DNA of 64,000 nucleotides, taken from NCBI GenBank assembly GCA_964594925.1, contig CAZQOG010000002.1, positions 389 through 64,388 of the forward strand. The letters are read 5' to 3'. This document shows positions 34,622-54,342 of the stretch, piece by piece. The position numbers were made by a program, and so were the translations under genes. The stretch's first letter is position 1, and the number at the start of each line of letters is the position of its first letter. This DNA is from an uncultured Desulfohalobiaceae bacterium. Lineage in GTDB: Bacteria; Desulfobacterota; Desulfovibrionia; Desulfovibrionales; CAZUBS01. The notes under the pieces are model-generated. The model searched no databases and was not told the origin of the DNA. It worked only from the letters and a program-made list of their open reading frames with translations.

Positions 34622-34659
34622 ACCAAACACAACAAAAGAAGGGAGGCCATGGCCTCCCC
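34622..34659 (-). terminator. intrinsic terminator after tRNA-Val
   Basis: Minus strand reads GGGGAGGCCATGGCCTCCC followed by TTCTTTTGTTGTGTTTGGTTT, starting 15 nt after the tRNA 3' end. Confidence 0.7.
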
Positions 34660-34673
34660 GAAAGATCCCAAGA

Positions 34674-34748
34674 TGGTAGGCGCGAGGAGATTTGAACTCC
34701 TGACCCCTTGCGCGTCAAGCAAGTGCTCTCCCCCTGAGCTACGCGCCT
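34674..34748 (-). tRNA. tRNA-Val (anticodon GAC), CCA encoded
   Basis: Hand-folded cloverleaf: AGGCGCG-TA-GCTC-AGGGGGA-GAGC-A-CTTGC-TTGACGC-GCAAG-GGGTC-AGGAG-TTCAAAT-CTCCT-CGCGCCT-A-CCA, 75 nt. Confidence 0.93.
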
Positions 34749-34763
34749 ACAATAAGGCTCGGA

Positions 34764-34792
34764 TACCTAGCACCGAGGCCACGGCCTGTCAA
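34764..34792 (-). promoter_or_regulatory. candidate sigma70 promoter of tRNA-Val
   Basis: Minus strand reads TTGACA (34792-34787), 17-nt spacer, TAGGTA (34769-34764). This puts a start a few nt before the mature tRNA 5' end (34748). Confidence 0.5.
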
Positions 34793-35109
34793 CATGCTGC
34801 CAGACAGAATGCACAGCTTCACGAGGCAGGTCAATGGGGGCTGGAAGATGGAGAGGCGTGGGTGTTGCCTGCTGTAATGAAGAGGAGATCGTGGGGATTG
34901 GGCCGGATCGGTGCGGGTTGAGTCCGTCGACATCCGGGGGCATGGGTCACGTTTGCATGTTTGAAAAGCTGGGCTTGAGGACATCGGGTCCGTGCTCCTT
35001 GGCCGGGGAGCCGGTGAATGTGCCTGGACCAGGAACTTTATAAGGACCAAAGCGTTTTCGGCTCCGGCCAGGGGAGAAAAAGGGATTGCGGGAAAAGTTA
35101 GTCAACCCT

Positions 35110-35127
35110 AATAAATTTTTATTGACA
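35110..35127 (+). promoter_or_regulatory. AT-rich palindrome overlapping a TTGACA -35-like hexamer upstream of feoA (candidate Fur-type operator/promoter)
   Basis: AATAAA-TT-TTTATT (35110-35123) is immediately followed by, and overlaps, TTGACA (35122-35127). Flanked by GTCAA...TTGAC (35101-35126). No good -10 was found; assignment is by position next to iron-transport genes only. Confidence 0.3.
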
Positions 35128-35178
35128 GGGAAAGGGGGAGAGGGGTATCGGGTGGAACATTCTCGTGGTGGAAAGGTT

Positions 35179-35208
35179 ATTCTCTCCGACAGGGGGAGAA
35201 TTTTTTTT
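35179..35208 (+). terminator. canonical intrinsic terminator with no upstream plus-strand gene (leader attenuator or sRNA terminator)
   Basis: 9-bp stem attctctcc/ggggagaat (one G-U), 5-nt loop gacag, then a run of 8 T (35201-35208). Lies 41 nt upstream of the feoA ATG. Confidence 0.65.
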
Positions 35209-35248
35209 CAAATTGAAGTTAGGAAAAGCTAACTATTGGGGTGTGATC

Positions 35249-35500
35249 ATGACCAGAGCAATCGGATTGCGGCAACTGCCGGCGGGACAAAAGGCTGTGA
35301 TACGAACCGTGGCCGCAGGCGGGGAGCTGGGGCGTCGCATTCGGGACATGGGGCTGGTGCCCGGCACGGAGCTGACAGTGGTGGGCAGGGCACCGCTCAG
35401 GGATCCCGTAGCTCTGCGGCTCAGGGACTTTACCTTGACCCTGCGCAACAACGAGGCCGACCACATCAGCGTCGACACGGCGGGAGGAGAAAACGGATGA
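35249..35500 (+). CDS. feoA: ferrous iron transport protein A
   Basis: 83 codons from ATG 35249 (track ORF starts at GTG 35165). LRQLPAGQKAVIRTV...GRRIRDMGLVPGTELTVVGRAPLRDPVAL is the FeoA SH3-like domain. Confidence 0.9.
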   Translation: MTRAIGLRQLPAGQKAVIRTVAAGGELGRRIRDMGLVPGTELTVVGRAPLRDPVALRLRDFTLTLRNNEADHISVDTAGGENG

Positions 35501-37680
35501 GTGGAATATACACCATCGCACTGGCCGGAAACCCCAACTCGGGCAAGACAACAATGTTCAACGGGCTGACAGGGGCCCGCCAGCGGGTGGGCAACTACCC
35601 GGGTGTGACCGTGGAGAAGAAGATCGGCACTGCCACGTTGGAGGGAGCTTCGCTGCACATTGTGGACCTGCCCGGGACCTACTCGCTGACAGCCTACTCC
35701 CAGGAAGAGCTGGTGGCCCGGAACTTCCTGGTGGAAGAGCGGCCCCAGGTGGTGGTGGACATCCTGGATGCAACCTCTCTGGAGCGCAACCTTTATCTGG
35801 CCGTGCAGTTCCTGGAGCTGGGCGTTCCTCTGGTCCTGGCCCTGAACATGATGGACGAAGTGGCCAAACAGGGCAAGCGCATCGATTCGGCCAGGCTGTC
35901 CGAGCTGATGCAGGTCCCTGTGGTGGAGACCGTGGCCAGGCAGGGCAAGGGCAAGCAGGAGCTGCTCAAGGCGGCCGTTGCGTATGCATCGGCCAGGAGC
36001 GGGGACTGGACGCCTCTTGCCATTTCCTACGGTCCGGATCTGGACCCTGTGCTCCAGGACATGGCGGACCGCATCACCATGGAGCGGTTTCTCGCAGACC
36101 ACTATCCTGCCAGATGGGTGGCCCTGAAGTACCTGGAACGGGATGCGGAGGTCATGCGGCTGGGTGAGGCCCGGCACGAGGCTCTGCATCTGGAGCTGCA
36201 GGCCAGGGCCGACGAGGTGGCCGCGCATTGCCGCAAGACCCTGGACACCCACCCCGAGGCCGTCATCGCCGACTACCGGTACGGCTACATCGCCTCCGTG
36301 CTCAAGCAGGGCGTGATAACCGGAGGCGCCGTCACCGACCGGATCAGGCTCTCGGACCGCATCGACCAGGTGGTGACCCACCAGTTGCTGGGGCCAGCGA
36401 TCATGCTGCTGGTGGTCTACGCCATGTTCAAGGCCACCTTCACCATCGGCGAGATCCCCATGGGCTGGCTGGAGGGACTGTTCGGCTGGATGGGGGGGGC
36501 GGCCACGGCACTGATCCCGGCGGGACTGATCCAATCACTGGTGGTCTCCGGCATTATCGACGGCGTGGGAGGAGTGCTCGGGTTCGTCCCGCTCATCTTT
36601 GTCATGTTCCTGTTTCTCTCCTTTCTGGAGGACTCCGGGTATACGGCGCGCATGGCCTACATGCTGGACCGGGTGCTTAGGCTCTTCGGGCTGCACGGTT
36701 GCTCGGTCATGCCCTTCATCGTCTCCGGCGGCATCCCGGGCGGCTGCGCCGTGCCCGGGATAATGGCCACCAGGACGCTGCGCAGTCCCAAAGAGAAGCT
36801 GGCCACCCTGCTCACCGCCCCCTTTCTGACCTGCGGGGCCAAGGTGCCGGTATTTTTGCTTCTGGCCGCGGCCTTTTTTCCGGGTTCGGCCGCCTCGGTC
36901 ATGTTCTGGATCACCCTGGGCGGCTGGGCCATGGTCCTGCTGGTGGCCAGGCTGCTCAGGTCCACCGTGATCAAAGGGGAGTCCACGCCGTTCGTCATGG
37001 AGCTGCCGCCTTACCGGCTGCCCACCCTGCGCGGCGTGTTGACCCACACCTGGGAGCGTTCCTGGCAGTACATAAGAAAAGCGGGAACCGTGATCCTGGC
37101 CATCGCCATCCTGCTCTGGGCGGCCATGACTTTTCCCGGACTGCCCGAAGAGCAGGCTGCACGGTTCGACGCGCAGCGGGCCCAAGTGAAAGCCGCTGTT
37201 GGCACCGGTTTGAGTGATGCGGAGCAGGCGGTACTTGAAGAGCGTCTGGAAGCCATCGACAATGCCGAAGGCCAGGCCGCACTCAAACACTCCGTGGCCG
37301 GACGAGTCGGCACCGGGCTGGAAGGGGTGACCCAATGGGCCGGATTCGACTGGAGGACCAACATCGCCCTGGTGGGCGGGTTCGCGGCCAAGGAGGTCAT
37401 CGTGGCCAGCCTGGGCACGGCCTACTCCTTGGGAGAGGTGGACCCGGAGGAACCGGCATCCCTGTCCCAGCGTCTGGCCAGCGACCCGCAGTGGACCGCG
37501 GTCACCGCCCTGAGCCTGATCGTGTTCGTCATGCTCTATGCCCCCTGCTTCGTGACCGTGGTGGCCATGGCCAGGGAGTCTTCCTGGCGCTGGGCTTTGT
37601 TCTCCACCTGCTTCAACACGGTGCTGGCCTTTGTGCTGGCCGTGGCGGTCTATCAGGTGGGAACCCGTTTGATCACCTAG
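35497..37680 (+). CDS. feoB: ferrous iron transport protein B
   Basis: ATG 35497 overlaps the feoA stop (ATGA). G-domain IALAGNPNSGKTTMFNGLTG...VDLPGTYSL, followed by the polytopic membrane domain. Confidence 0.95.
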   Translation: MSGIYTIALAGNPNSGKTTMFNGLTGARQRVGNYPGVTVEKKIGTATLEGASLHIVDLPGTYSLTAYSQEELVARNFLVEERPQVVVDILDATSLERNLYLAVQFLELGVPLVLALNMMDEVAKQGKRIDSARLSELMQVPVVETVARQGKGKQELLKAAVAYASARSGDWTPLAISYGPDLDPVLQDMADRITMERFLADHYPARWVALKYLERDAEVMRLGEARHEALHLELQARADEVAAHCRKTLDTHPEAVIADYRYGYIASVLKQGVITGGAVTDRIRLSDRIDQVVTHQLLGPAIMLLVVYAMFKATFTIGEIPMGWLEGLFGWMGGAATALIPAGLIQSLVVSGIIDGVGGVLGFVPLIFVMFLFLSFLEDSGYTARMAYMLDRVLRLFGLHGCSVMPFIVSGGIPGGCAVPGIMATRTLRSPKEKLATLLTAPFLTCGAKVPVFLLLAAAFFPGSAASVMFWITLGGWAMVLLVARLLRSTVIKGESTPFVMELPPYRLPTLRGVLTHTWERSWQYIRKAGTVILAIAILLWAAMTFPGLPEEQAARFDAQRAQVKAAVGTGLSDAEQAVLEERLEAIDNAEGQAALKHSVAGRVGTGLEGVTQWAGFDWRTNIALVGGFAAKEVIVASLGTAYSLGEVDPEEPASLSQRLASDPQWTAVTALSLIVFVMLYAPCFVTVVAMARESSWRWALFSTCFNTVLAFVLAVAVYQVGTRLIT

Positions 37681-37704
37681 TGTGGGTGTTCCCCGGAGAT
37701 GATT

Positions 37705-37884
37705 ATGCGTGCACAAAAGAAGACCGTGGTTCAGACCGATCGGCCCATGATCACAGGAGCGGTGAATATACCCTCCAGGAAAAAGTTTTTCAGAAGTATC
37801 AGGATTTCGATTCTCGGATCCTTAGCAGATGGAGATGGGCAGTCAGAACTCCAAGGCTCCGATGACGTGCCGGCCCTCGAATAG
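37705..37884 (+). CDS. hypothetical small protein downstream of feoB (weak call)
   Basis: ORF track 37699..37884. GGAG lies 6 nt before ATG 37705. Basic N-half and acidic C-tail, visibly lower GC than neighbours, no recognisable family. Confidence 0.3.
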   Translation: MRAQKKTVVQTDRPMITGAVNIPSRKKFFRSIRISILGSLADGDGQSELQGSDDVPALE

Positions 37885-37889
37885 AGCGG

Positions 37890-38834
37890 TCAGAGGCTGG
37901 TCCAGAAAAGAAGCGCACCCAGTCCGAAGATGGCCACAGAGCCCAGCAGGGCCAGGGTGAAGTGGACCATGGTCAGGGCCTGCTCGTGTCCGGCCAGGCT
38001 GCGGTAGAGGCCCTTGCGGGCCTGGATGGTGGCCAGGGCGAACAAGGAGGTGGTCAGGCCCATGCCCAGACCGATTGCGGCCATGGCCAGCAGGCCGGTG
38101 GCCATGATGCCCAGGCTGACGGCCGCGACCAGGATGATTCCCGCCCCGGGGCAGGGGACCAGCCCGATGCTGCAGGCGGTCAGGATCAGTCCCCGATTGT
38201 CCTCAGGTCCGGAATGCCTCTCGGTGCCGTCGTGGCTTGCCCTGTCCTGCAGCCGGCCCCGCAGCCCGAGGAAGGATTTGACCAGCAGGAACAGGCCGAT
38301 CAGGGCCAGCAGCCCGTAGCTGGCCGTCTCCAGGCGGGGGCCCATGTCGTCCAGGGTCAAAGCCCCGGAGGTGCGAAGCACGAAGTACCCCAGGCAGACC
38401 AGCACCGTTGCGGACAGGACGTGGGAGAACATGGTCAGGAAACCGAATGCCACCCCCTTGGAGAGGCTGCCGGGCCGGTTCAAAAAGTAGGAGCAGACAA
38501 AGAGCTTGCCGTGGCCCGGTCCCAGGGCGTGGACCACGCCGTAGGCAAAGGCGCTGAGCATGAACAGCCAGAAAGAGCGCCCCAGGGGGTGCTCCCGGAT
38601 GTCCCGGCCCAGGCTGACAAGGCTCTGCCTGAGCTGAAGCTGGACCCTGGCTGTGGTGTCCATGAGCGGCCGGAAGACCTTGGGATAGCCGACCACGCTT
38701 CTTGGCGCGGTTGCGTTGGATGAGTCCCCTGCCCCCAAAAAAGGGTTTTTGGCAGCAAGAGACGGCATGGGGCCACCTGTCCAGAGCATCAGGGCCAGAC
38801 CTGTCAGCCACAAAAGAAACTGGAAGCGGGTCAT
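37890..38834 (-). CDS. nickel/cobalt transporter, NicO/RcnA-like permease
   Basis: ORF track 37890..38966, trimmed to ATG 38834 (ATGA overlap with the DUF1007 gene). Signature VVHALGPGHGK and a second half-repeat with CPGAG. Confidence 0.75.
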   Translation of the reverse strand: MTRFQFLLWLTGLALMLWTGGPMPSLAAKNPFLGAGDSSNATAPRSVVGYPKVFRPLMDTTARVQLQLRQSLVSLGRDIREHPLGRSFWLFMLSAFAYGVVHALGPGHGKLFVCSYFLNRPGSLSKGVAFGFLTMFSHVLSATVLVCLGYFVLRTSGALTLDDMGPRLETASYGLLALIGLFLLVKSFLGLRGRLQDRASHDGTERHSGPEDNRGLILTACSIGLVPCPGAGIILVAAVSLGIMATGLLAMAAIGLGMGLTTSLFALATIQARKGLYRSLAGHEQALTMVHFTLALLGSVAIFGLGALLFWTSL

Positions 38835-39595
38835 TTGATGCGAAACTTGAGAACAAAGGCCTCGGGTGTGATCTGCTCGAAAAAGTAGGCCATTTCCGGT
38901 GCTCTCTTCACCCGGGTGGCAATTTCGAAGCCGTCTGCCGCCCCCTCGACCCTGACTTCCCCACAAAAGTCCTGCAACCCCACGGCATCGGAGAACCTGG
39001 CAAAGTCATCCGGAGAGGGGCCGGCTGCAGGGTCGCCGTACAGCGGGTCCGAAGAGGGGTCGAGCGATTCGCCGTATTCCTGGGCGTAGGCCACAAAGGT
39101 GTAAAAGGTCTCGTCATAGACTGCGGCCTTGATTTCCTTTGACTGGGTGTCCGCAGTGACGTGGCAGGGAACAAAGAATTGGTAGACCAATACCCCCTCT
39201 TCCAGTGCGGCGGAAAAGTCAGTGATCCACCGGGCCTTGAACGGGTCACCGTTGATGTGCGCGTGGGTGTAGTAGTGAAACTCCCGGAAGCCTTCCTTGA
39301 AGAGGGTCTCGATCTCGGCGGCCTCCTGCTTCCTCAAGGCGGCGTTGCGGTCCTTGTCCACCACGTCCAGGATGGACAGGGTGGTCATTTCGTCCAGGGT
39401 CCACTGCTGGCGGAACCCCGCCAGGCCCTGGTCGTCGAAGACAAAGGAGAATGTGCACTCCACAAAGGCGTGGGGATGGGGTCGGCCGGCCTGTGGGGCG
39501 AGGAAAACAAAGAGCACCACGGTTGCTGCAACTTCCAAGAGCAGGAAGGCCGTGCTCTGGTGCACCTTGAACCGGCGGGGCTGGAAAAAAGCCAT
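38831..39595 (-). CDS. DUF1007-family periplasmic protein (usual partner of NicO-type permeases)
   Basis: 254-aa ORF behind AGGAG. Signal-like N-terminus, then HPHAFVECTFSFVFDDQGLAGFRQQWTLDEMTT, typical of DUF1007. Confidence 0.7.
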   Translation of the reverse strand: MAFFQPRRFKVHQSTAFLLLEVAATVVLFVFLAPQAGRPHPHAFVECTFSFVFDDQGLAGFRQQWTLDEMTTLSILDVVDKDRNAALRKQEAAEIETLFKEGFREFHYYTHAHINGDPFKARWITDFSAALEEGVLVYQFFVPCHVTADTQSKEIKAAVYDETFYTFVAYAQEYGESLDPSSDPLYGDPAAGPSPDDFARFSDAVGLQDFCGEVRVEGAADGFEIATRVKRAPEMAYFFEQITPEAFVLKFRIK

Positions 39596-53916: not shown

Positions 53917-54342
53917 TCATCCCCCCCGGCACTCCTCGCACACGCCGTCCAGGCGGATCTCCACGCTGTGAACCTCGAGCGCTCCCTCTTGCTTGAGCCT
54001 GGCGACCTCCGCCGGGACCCGGGAGGTGGGTAAGCAGCGCATCTCCCGGCAGGAGGTGCAGTAGAAGTGGCAGCGCACGCCATGGGAACGGTCGGCCAGG
54101 CAGTAGCGGAAGACCCGGTCCCCGCCGCTGTGACGCCAGACCAGCCCTTCTTCCACCAACAGGTCCAGGATGCGGTACAGGGTGACCTTGTTCATGGCCG
54201 CCTCGGGGGGGATGCCGGCCAGGATCTCCTGGGCCTGCAACGGGGAGTGGCTGGCGGCGATGACCGTCAGTACCCGCACCCGGCAGGGGGTGGGCTCCAC
54301 CCCGCTTTGGTGCAGAAGATCCCTGAGGCGCTTCTCCCCCAT
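53917..54342 (-). CDS. zur: Fur-family zinc uptake regulator
   Basis: 141 codons within track ORF 53917..54771. RVRVLTVIAAS...KVTLYRILDLLVEEGLV (winged helix), HFYCTSC...CEEC metal sites. Last gene of the znu operon. Confidence 0.85.
   Translation of the reverse strand: MGEKRLRDLLHQSGVEPTPCRVRVLTVIAASHSPLQAQEILAGIPPEAAMNKVTLYRILDLLVEEGLVWRHSGGDRVFRYCLADRSHGVRCHFYCTSCREMRCLPTSRVPAEVARLKQEGALEVHSVEIRLDGVCEECRGG

Follow-up and report, generated by a model that had tools for sequence, protein, structure and literature searches.

Anaerobes take up iron mainly through FeoAB, and an excess of Fe(II) is toxic. In the window, as the whole 64-kb stretch of DNA analysed here is called, a hairpin followed by a run of eight T stands shortly upstream of feoAB. 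The question raised by this locus is what an intrinsic terminator does in front of an iron importer, and how the importer genes could be expressed past it. The features first needed are the following:

34674–34748, minus strand: tRNA-Val(GAC), upstream of feoAB
35179–35208, plus strand: intrinsic terminator with a 9-bp stem (35179–35187 with 35193–35201), the loop GACAG, and a T8 run (35201–35208)
35238–35243, plus strand: Shine-Dalgarno sequence (SD) of feoA, GGGGTG (GAGGTG in the relative L176)
35249–35500, plus strand: feoA, 83 aa, ATG start, Pfam FeoA with E = 2.9e-20
35497–37680, plus strand: feoB, 727 aa, Pfam FeoB_N, FeoB_Cyto, Gate, and FeoB_C

The homologues of FeoA, of 78–92 aa, have the same N-terminus, and feoA and feoB overlap through an ATGA. 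Exact look-ups of FeoA and FeoB returned no contig, and close relatives for comparison were reached through the 90% cluster of FeoA. One contig, L177, is identical to the window. Another, L176, belongs to the same 90% cluster and has a FeoB 87% identical to that of the window; its identity forms a mosaic, of 93–98% in feoA and parts of feoB and 65–77% across the regulatory region. The FeoA of L083 is 81% identical. In reference genomes, no FeoB relative exceeds 68% identity, so that none of these genomes is close.

The upstream neighbours tRNA-Val(GAC), thrS, and infC are all encoded on the minus strand, and none of the plus-strand open reading frames in 34649–35232 has a Pfam match. One of 69 aa (34834–35043, plus strand) has its frame broken in L176 by two 1-nt indels. 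The initial annotation had seen no plus-strand gene before the terminator and had dismissed an extension of feoA up to GTG 35165, running through the hairpin; both points hold. The extension is judged spurious because in-frame stop codons are present in L176 and L083. The same over-extension is found in P0121, a 111-aa call on the Logan contig L177. Gene callers run feoA through the hairpin from an erroneous start, and terminator predictors would set an operon boundary where probably none exists.

The hairpin (35179–35201, plus strand) reads ATTCTCTCC-GACAG-GGGGAGAAT, with nine stem pairs (four G-C, four A-T, and one G-T) and a loop of 5 nt. A G+C-containing stem of at least 5 bp, a loop of 3–8 nt, and an adjoining U-tract on the 3′ side were taken as the marks of an intrinsic terminator, and all are present. 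Folded in isolation, the hairpin has an energy of −12.1 kcal/mol (z = −3.45), equalled by none of 200 shuffled sequences. A segment GGAAAGG on its 5′ side is able to pair with the U-tract. Scanning both strands of the 64 kb returned seven terminator-like sites, among which this one has the longest stem and is the best candidate. Its T8 is the sole homopolymer of at least 8 nt in the window, the GC content of which is 65%. Fold and scan thus bear out the initial annotation, which had described a textbook terminator (9 bp, 5 nt, T8) of a kind very rare in this GC-rich DNA.

The structure is kept despite sequence change, by substitutions in L176 and by an unrelated hairpin in L083. The hairpin of L176, CUUCUCUCU-CGGCA-AGGGGGGGG, has a 10-bp stem and an energy of −10.6 kcal/mol. 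Relative to the window, its stem has two double, compensatory changes (A-U to C-G and C-G to U-A) and three changes from U-A to U-G, none of which breaks a pair. When the window hairpin was mutated at random to an equal extent, 2.4% of the copies folded as stably as that of L176, and the hairpin appears to be under selection in this lineage. The hairpin of L083 is CCCCCT-GGG-AGGGGG followed by TTTTT. By these sequence characters, the hairpin and T8 upstream of feoAB are a genuine canonical intrinsic terminator, at which termination is predicted.

On the 5′ side of the hairpin, a candidate promoter, P1, was delineated:

35107–35127, plus strand: A/T-rich tract and −35 hexamer TTGACA (35122–35127), including the palindrome AATAAA-TT-TTTATT (35110–35123)
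35146–35151, plus strand: candidate −10 hexamer of P1, TATCGG, with an 18-nt spacer from TTGACA
35158–35178, plus strand: 5′ leader of about 21 nt before the hairpin

The overlap of TTGACA with the AATAAA-TT-TTTATT palindrome, pointed out previously, is confirmed at these positions; the palindrome is not kept as such in L083 or L001. Across the A/T tract and TTGACA, TAATAAATTTTTATTGACA, L176 agrees at 19 of 19 positions, in a block with an identity of otherwise 65–77%, and the pattern CTAAT-T(4-6)A-TTGAC recurs in L083, L001, L105, and L149. The −10 region, GGGGTATC, is also identical in L176, and the spacer before it has diverged. From these elements, transcription would start around 35157–35159. 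The −10 hexamer matches the consensus at three of six positions and has no T at position 6, which counts against expression from P1; its equivalents are TATCTG in L176 and TAAAAA in L083, where the usual T at position 6 is likewise absent. P1 was not called by a consensus promoter scan, neither in the window nor in L083. A G-quadruplex motif in the spacer of P1 was discarded, as it is not conserved in L176.

This promoter and the terminator are bracketed by the only two copies of the palindrome TTAG-N6-CTAA in the 64 kb (at 35098 and 35219), compared with 0.04 expected:

35096–35113, no strand: box1, putative DtxR-family operator, AGTTAGTCAACCCTAAT(A), with the core TTAG-N6-CTAA at 35098–35111
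35217–35234, no strand: box2, putative DtxR-family operator, AGTTAGGAAAAGCTAACT, AGTTAG-GAAAAG-CTAACT, with the core at 35219–35232

The end of box1 is 10 nt from TTGACA. Box2 is a perfect 6+6 palindrome, 10 nt from the T-run, with its core 5 nt from the SD of feoA. The boxes are 121 bp apart, with the terminator in between. Box1 is kept in L176 (with one mismatch), L083, and L001. In L176, the arms of box2 are intact and the centre is changed; the position of box2 is also occupied in L083, L105, L149, L090, L122, L143, and others. L083 presents the order box1, TTGACA-N17-TAAAAA, a leader of about 22 nt, hairpin, T-run, 11 nt, box2, SD, and feoA. Its TTGACA is 54 nt from the hairpin (57 nt in the window) and its T-run 11 nt from box2 (10 nt in the window). 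Among the window, L176, L083, and L001, the arms of the boxes are conserved and the centres variable, which is the pattern of a protein site and not that of an RNA stem.

The published DtxR consensus, TTAGGTTAGCCTAACCTAA, contains TTAG-N6-CTAA (PMC7762939). As palindromes of the family consensus in which the arms are conserved and the centre varies, the putative boxes present the characters of a DtxR/IdeR/MntR-type operator, and they resemble the DtxR/IdeR operator and not the delta-proteobacterial Fur box. The earlier idea of Fur control is not supported, since the Fur-box consensus WTGAAAATNATTTTCAW of Rodionov et al. 2004 (PMC545781) has no match in the whole window with up to three mismatches, and the conserved motif is the DtxR/IdeR-like palindrome. 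Published delta-proteobacterial reconstructions place feoAB under Fur (PMC545781). The Fur-repressed feoAB of Desulfovibrio and Geobacter in these reconstructions are the same target genes in related organisms, but the window has another palindrome in place of the dFUR box. Boxes of the dFUR type were found in the fetched relatives L006, L008, L011, L015, L017, L164, L178, and L180. For a relative of the Desulfovibrionales, it is unusual that feoAB appears to have a site of DtxR type and not of Fur type.

In the 64-kb window, tblastn found no DtxR/MntR homologue, and a Fur-family gene is present (53926–54315, minus strand); both facts count against the leading explanation given below. Elsewhere, DtxR-family genes adjoin the box-bearing feo loci L018, L034, L045, L053, L084, and L108, an assignment that is Pfam-confirmed for L108. 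In L084 and L108, a box is also found upstream of the regulator gene itself. Some other loci with a DtxR-family gene have no exact box. The assignment of the boxes to a DtxR-family repressor, which might sense Fe or Mn, is thus putative. Known DtxR/IdeR/MntR repression is alike in having a palindromic operator with TTAG-N6-CTAA at a metal-transporter promoter and, as seen elsewhere, regulator genes that adjoin box-bearing feo. It differs in that the window has two putative operators around an intrinsic terminator, located upstream of the −35 hexamer (box1) and in the 5′ UTR before the SD (box2), and in that a cognate regulator was not found in the 64 kb.

A terminator between promoter and first gene, with expression that needs read-through, is shared with leader attenuators (riboswitch platforms and those of trp or pyr type). 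Since a terminator in the leader of a transporter gene is the usual expression platform of off-switches, attenuation by a riboswitch or a different RNA sensor, responding to Fe2+ or to some other ligand, was considered. Rfam searches of the whole window at gathering thresholds, and of 34700–35400 at E ≤ 10, returned tRNA only, and no aptamer was found upstream of the terminator. The leader of about 21 nt is 64–72% identical to that of L176, which is not above the surrounding diverged block, and is unrelated to that of L083. Further upstream, 35037–35086 is only 36–60% identical in L176, with many indels. No antiterminator was found, every minimum-free-energy and centroid fold keeping the terminator. 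A long imperfect hairpin at about 35000–35073 was rejected, since L176 does not conserve it and z is only −2.1 for the fold of 34960–35212. Attenuation by a leader peptide was also sought, and no SD-bearing open reading frame overlaps the terminator in the feoA leader. The only start codons there are GTG 35152, 35165, and 35168; the first is upstream of the presumed start site, and the feoA frame from the other two contains stop codons in L176 and L083. Unlike the leader attenuators, the window thus has no aptamer, leader peptide, or antiterminator, and its input would apparently be a DNA-bound protein. An RNA sensor is extremely improbable.

Alternatively, the short RNA itself could be the product. 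A metal-regulated P1 would give an sRNA of about 50 nt ending at the terminator, in the manner of Fur-controlled or 5′-UTR sRNAs. The form is appropriate, as a promoter is followed by a short transcript that would end at a strong, U-tailed terminator, and box1 suggests metal control. According to one report, premature 3′ ends in 5′ UTRs can give functional sRNAs in E. coli (PMC7815308). The likeness to RyhB, PrrF, FsrA, and 5′-UTR sRNAs lies in the metal-regulated promoter, the short transcript, and the Rho-independent terminator. However, the RNA of the window would be very short and without a conserved seed. Its 21-nt 5′ part, where a conserved single-stranded region would be expected, is no better conserved than the surroundings in L176 and has no relation to that of L083. 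In the Firmicutes, where the leader on the 5′ side of the hairpin is only about 8 nt, the RNA would be about 35 nt and nearly all hairpin. There is no Rfam match, and the element is always in cis with a feo gene. Judged by length and alignment, the leader has neither the size nor the conservation that a riboswitch or an sRNA seed would need. An sRNA as the product is rated very improbable, more so than any explanation discussed below. The two readings offered in the initial annotation therefore fared differently. Transcription of feoAB through a terminating leader is the best supported, except for its riboswitch part, which is left with no Rfam match and an unconserved leader of about 21 nt; the independent trans-acting sRNA is not supported, its product of about 50 nt having no conserved single-stranded part.

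The arrangement around box2 is not confined to the window. A cassette with the order hairpin, T-run, 9–14 nt, box, SD, and gene precedes feo genes in Desulfobacterota and Firmicutes, in loci that all come from MAGs or metagenome contigs. When the exact boxes of the fetched loci were examined, 16 of 59 had a T-run and hairpin at most 13 nt upstream, compared with 1.0% of random positions and 2.0% of SD-ATG positions; a further few have the cassette under looser criteria. The association is non-random. The close FeoA relatives L164, L169, L178 (Desulfohalovibrio reitneri), and L180 are Fur-box loci without the cassette. In a first group of loci, the cassette follows a second, co-directional feoA (L090, L116, L122, L131, L143, and L160); in others, it follows the gene of a Cys-rich FeoB-associated protein (L105 and L149) or stands after feoA and ahead of feoB (L031 and L039). 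Directly after a promoter, it is found in the window and L176, L083, L135, and the Firmicutes L022, L023, L026, and L054. In L022, L023, and L026, the sole consensus promoter within 400 nt (TTGACA-N17 followed by TAAACT, TACTAT, or TAAAAT; 10–11 of 12 consensus matches) runs into a hairpin, which starts near +9, and a T-run; a box follows 7–9 nt after the T-run, then an SD and feoA. The Firmicutes leader hairpins are weak, with about −6 kcal/mol.

Firmicutes loci without a hairpin have TTGACA-N5/6-box or TTGACA-N11-box, often with a second box 20–21 bp downstream that abuts the SD; box2 of the window thus holds the position of that second, 5′-UTR operator. In L084 and L108, which have long 5′ UTRs, a T-run without a hairpin is found 10 nt from the box. 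Such T-runs at the cassette distance point to a role of the T-run at the DNA level.

This distribution bears on whether the terminator is an evolutionary relic. A small gene might once have stood between P1 and the terminator, encoding a Cys-rich FeoB-associated protein (compare L105 and L149) or a second FeoA (compare L090 and L122). Its deletion would have left the terminator orphaned and without a function. The order in L105 and L149 is indeed box1-like site, TTGAC promoter, Cys-rich gene, terminator, box2, and feoA, and many other loci have the order feoA′, terminator, box, and feoA. However, the orphan layout recurs independently in the window and L176, in L083, in L135, and in the Firmicutes L022, L023, L026, and L054. 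Compensatory changes keep the hairpin in L176, and a leftover that blocks feoAB would vanish quickly. Deletion of a gene is very unlikely as the explanation; like the sRNA and the riboswitch, it is less likely than each of the three readings that follow.

The leading explanation, held tentatively, is that feoAB is transcribed from P1, with box1 beside it, through a promoter-proximal leader terminator placed between two operators of DtxR/IdeR/MntR type. Transcription would start at P1 around 35158, from TTGACA (35122–35127) and the −10 region around 35146–35151. About 21 nt further on, the RNA would fold into the 9-bp hairpin with U8 behind it. Most polymerases would stop there and release an RNA of about 50 nt, and those that read through would pass box2 and the SD and yield the feoAB mRNA. 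Control by metal would come from the protein sites and not from the RNA. A metal-bound repressor would sit on box1, beside the −35 hexamer, and on box2, 10 bp past the U-tract; its occupancy would shut P1 and block the polymerases that get past the terminator. Without metal, both boxes would be free, and the terminator would act as a fixed damper on a strong derepressed promoter, limiting the output of the transporter. We infer from the arrangement what the repressor is, where the transcript starts and ends, that polymerase partly reads through, and that the terminator has the role of a damper.

Read-through from P1 is preferred because sensing by RNA is unlikely and no credible promoter is present downstream of the hairpin, where the consensus scan called none in the window. 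It is also supported by the absence of a plus-strand gene upstream, the conservation of the P1 elements and the apparent selection on the hairpin in L176, and the recurrence of a promoter running into a hairpin in the Firmicutes L022, L023, and L026. Other observations count against it. The 9-bp stem and perfect U8 look efficient, so that read-through may be too low for a transporter. The 9–14 nt between T-run and box also fit a second promoter. Box1 is upstream of the −35 hexamer, centred around −54, which is not a classical occluding position. On balance, the terminator most likely damps a metal-controlled promoter, and most likely is not part of a riboswitch, a Fur site, or an sRNA. Taken singly, the intrinsic terminator, the DtxR-like operators, and the sigma-70-like promoter are ordinary. 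What would be unusual is a strong terminator about 20 nt past the presumed start, bracketed by two putative operators, and the apparent recurrence of this bracketed-terminator design in two phyla. If read-through is the true explanation, a simple design made of a protein and a terminator would provide tight, damped control of a dangerous transporter in Desulfobacterota and Firmicutes.

The main rival to read-through is an insulated second promoter. The hairpin and T8 would stop transcription coming from upstream, and feoAB would be expressed from a weak promoter, P2, overlapping the T-run and box2. Box2 would then be an ordinary occluding operator, and P1 would yield a short by-product or feed polymerase to P2. 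The candidate hexamers in the window are TTTCAA or TTCAAA for the −35 (35206–35212, at the end of the T-run) and TAACTA for the −10 (35230–35235, in the right arm of box2), the best layout being TTTCAA-N18-TAACTA. In many respects, the wider set of loci agrees with this rival. In Firmicutes loci, the T-run runs straight into TTGACA, TTAACA, or TTGTCA, followed by 5 nt and the box. This geometry matches that of the clear TTGACA-N6-box promoters found in L034, L058, L060, L071, and L076, in which the right arm of the box contains the −10, TAACNT. The 9–14 nt between T-run and box are what a promoter spacer of 16–18 nt needs. The T-runs of L084 and L108 do without a hairpin. Most cassette loci have their hairpin behind a co-directional gene, a place at which one expects an insulating terminator, and a terminator followed by an operator is also found with a Fur-type box (L164).

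In the window itself, however, the P2 hexamers are poor (four of six matches for the −35, two of six for the −10, which has no T at position 6) and were not called by the scan. As TAACTA ends 2 nt before the SD, the P2 transcript would be devoid of it: the start would fall around 35241–35243, inside or beyond the SD, leaving a leader of 6–8 nt. The same difficulty arises in L176 and L083, and in L105 and L149, where the SD begins 3–4 nt after the box. Moreover, the conservation of P1 and box1 would be unexplained if the product were merely an RNA of 50 nt. An insulated P2 is considered unlikely, and is nevertheless the most serious contender. Two other placements of a promoter were dropped. 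One with its −35 in the hairpin loop (CCGACA-N17-CAAATT) has seven of 12 matches and no counterpart in L083, L105, or L149; the L176 version of this sequence reads TCGGCA-N16-CAAACT. The other, the −10 of which (TGAAGT or TAAAGT) would overlap the box on its left side, lacks a −35.

The third reading is a variant of read-through from P1, in which box2 assists the terminator. A metal-loaded repressor on box2 would stall the polymerase on or near the U-tract, and a leaky terminator would become tight only when metal is abundant, amounting to attenuation controlled by a protein with no RNA sensor. A polymerase stalled by a protein roadblock has its active site roughly 10–14 bp behind, and Deuschle et al. 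reportedly found in 1986 that the lac repressor blocks and terminates a transcribing polymerase. The spacing is fixed at 9–14 nt across unrelated hairpins in two phyla, whether after genes or directly after promoters. The weak hairpins of Firmicutes, of about −6 kcal/mol, would suit a conditional terminator, which must be weak. However, a footprint over the extended palindrome, from about 35214, would place the stall at the first U residues, with the 3′ arm of the stem still in the RNA–DNA hybrid, so that the geometry is not clearly favourable. The geometry of a promoter explains the spacing equally well, and the literature search found no experimental precedent for the arrangement. Roadblock-assisted termination in the window is rated improbable. 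It is equally doubtful that, in at least two phyla, the cassette serves a metal-loaded DtxR-family repressor, bound 9–14 bp past the U-tract, to tighten a leaky leader or intra-operon terminator.

Roadblock repression at the sites of CcpA, CodY, or PurR, or by the lac repressor, likewise involves an operator inside the transcribed region, downstream of the start; it differs from the window, where the putative operator follows an intrinsic terminator at a short, fixed distance. To our knowledge, this combination has not been described previously, and literature searches brought up neither a feoAB leader terminator nor a terminator–operator cassette. If terminator and operator are functionally coupled, they would constitute a novel form of attenuation.

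Among the fetched loci, those of cultured isolates, such as Roseburia hominis (L044) and Oscillibacter valericigenes (L049), have a plain or tandem box only. L062 corresponds to Phascolarctobacterium succinatutens.

Between positions 34766 and 38460, the window aligns with the feo locus of a close relative (L176) as a mosaic in which blocks of high and low identity alternate. Identity is 93–98% over 35262–35961 and 37362–38461, and 66–77% over 34863–35261, 35962–36461 and 37162–37361. This block-wise pattern of sequence identity suggests recombination between related lineages. The regulatory region of feoA lies in a diverged block, adjoining feoA itself, which is nearly identical in the two genomes. 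In the intergenic region, the following site was recognized:

34764–34792, minus strand: promoter-like site for tRNA-Val (TTGACA at 34792–34787, 17-nt spacer, TAGGTA at 34769–34764)

The 5′ end of tRNA-Val lies about 15 nt downstream of TAGGTA on the minus strand. The segment adjoining this promoter-like site (34788–34862) is 88–100% identical to that of L176, compared to 65–77% for the remaining intergenic region. Within P1, the proposed feoAB promoter, the spacer (35128–35152) contains four G-runs (GGGaaaGGGGGagaGGGGtatcGGG), which formally constitute a G-quadruplex motif on the non-template strand; the motif is not kept in L176.

Two features were delineated downstream of feoB:

37699–37884, plus strand: 61-aa ORF directly 3′ of feoB
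37893–39595, minus strand: NicO-family transporter gene and DUF1007 gene, convergent with feoB

The ORF, which has no match in Pfam or NCBIfam, differs from its L176 counterpart at four positions, three of which are synonymous in the ORF frame. Its high identity may be no more than a consequence of the surrounding near-identical block. No TTAG-N6-CTAA box, the putative DtxR-type operator, is associated with the NicO-family and DUF1007 genes.

In a Desulfohalobiaceae MAG (L001, 220–270), box1, the upstream one of the two boxes, and the TTGACA promoter that it precedes are the same as in the window, but here the promoter directly drives feoB, and feoA is absent. A perfect palindrome of 48 nt, AACAATGCGCAGCAGTGAAGACGGCCGTCTTCACTGCTGCGCATTGTT, is present in this locus directly 5′ of the Shine–Dalgarno sequence. 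In three Firmicutes loci (L022, 535–600; L023, 3680–3745; L026, 3650–3715), the hairpin in the leader, a putative intrinsic terminator between promoter and feo gene, has GGCTAAC as its 5′ arm plus loop. A degenerate box at the promoter +1 (GTAAGCAATGGCTAAC in L022 and L023, GTAAGTTATGGCTAAC in L026) has this same sequence as its right half. The degenerate box of L022 is 42 bp from the next box, twice the spacing of tandem boxes, which is 20–21 bp in L034, L040, L058 and L062.

The window also encodes a regulator:

53926–54315, minus strand: gene for a regulator of the Fur family (Pfam FUR, E = 3e-8)

Despite this gene, the 64-kb window contains no Fur box of the delta-proteobacterial type. In two loci with Fur-type boxes (L164, 1400–1500; L169, 1360–1500), a hairpin and T-run directly precede the operator of a second feoA; the order of terminator then operator is thus not restricted to the DtxR-like box.
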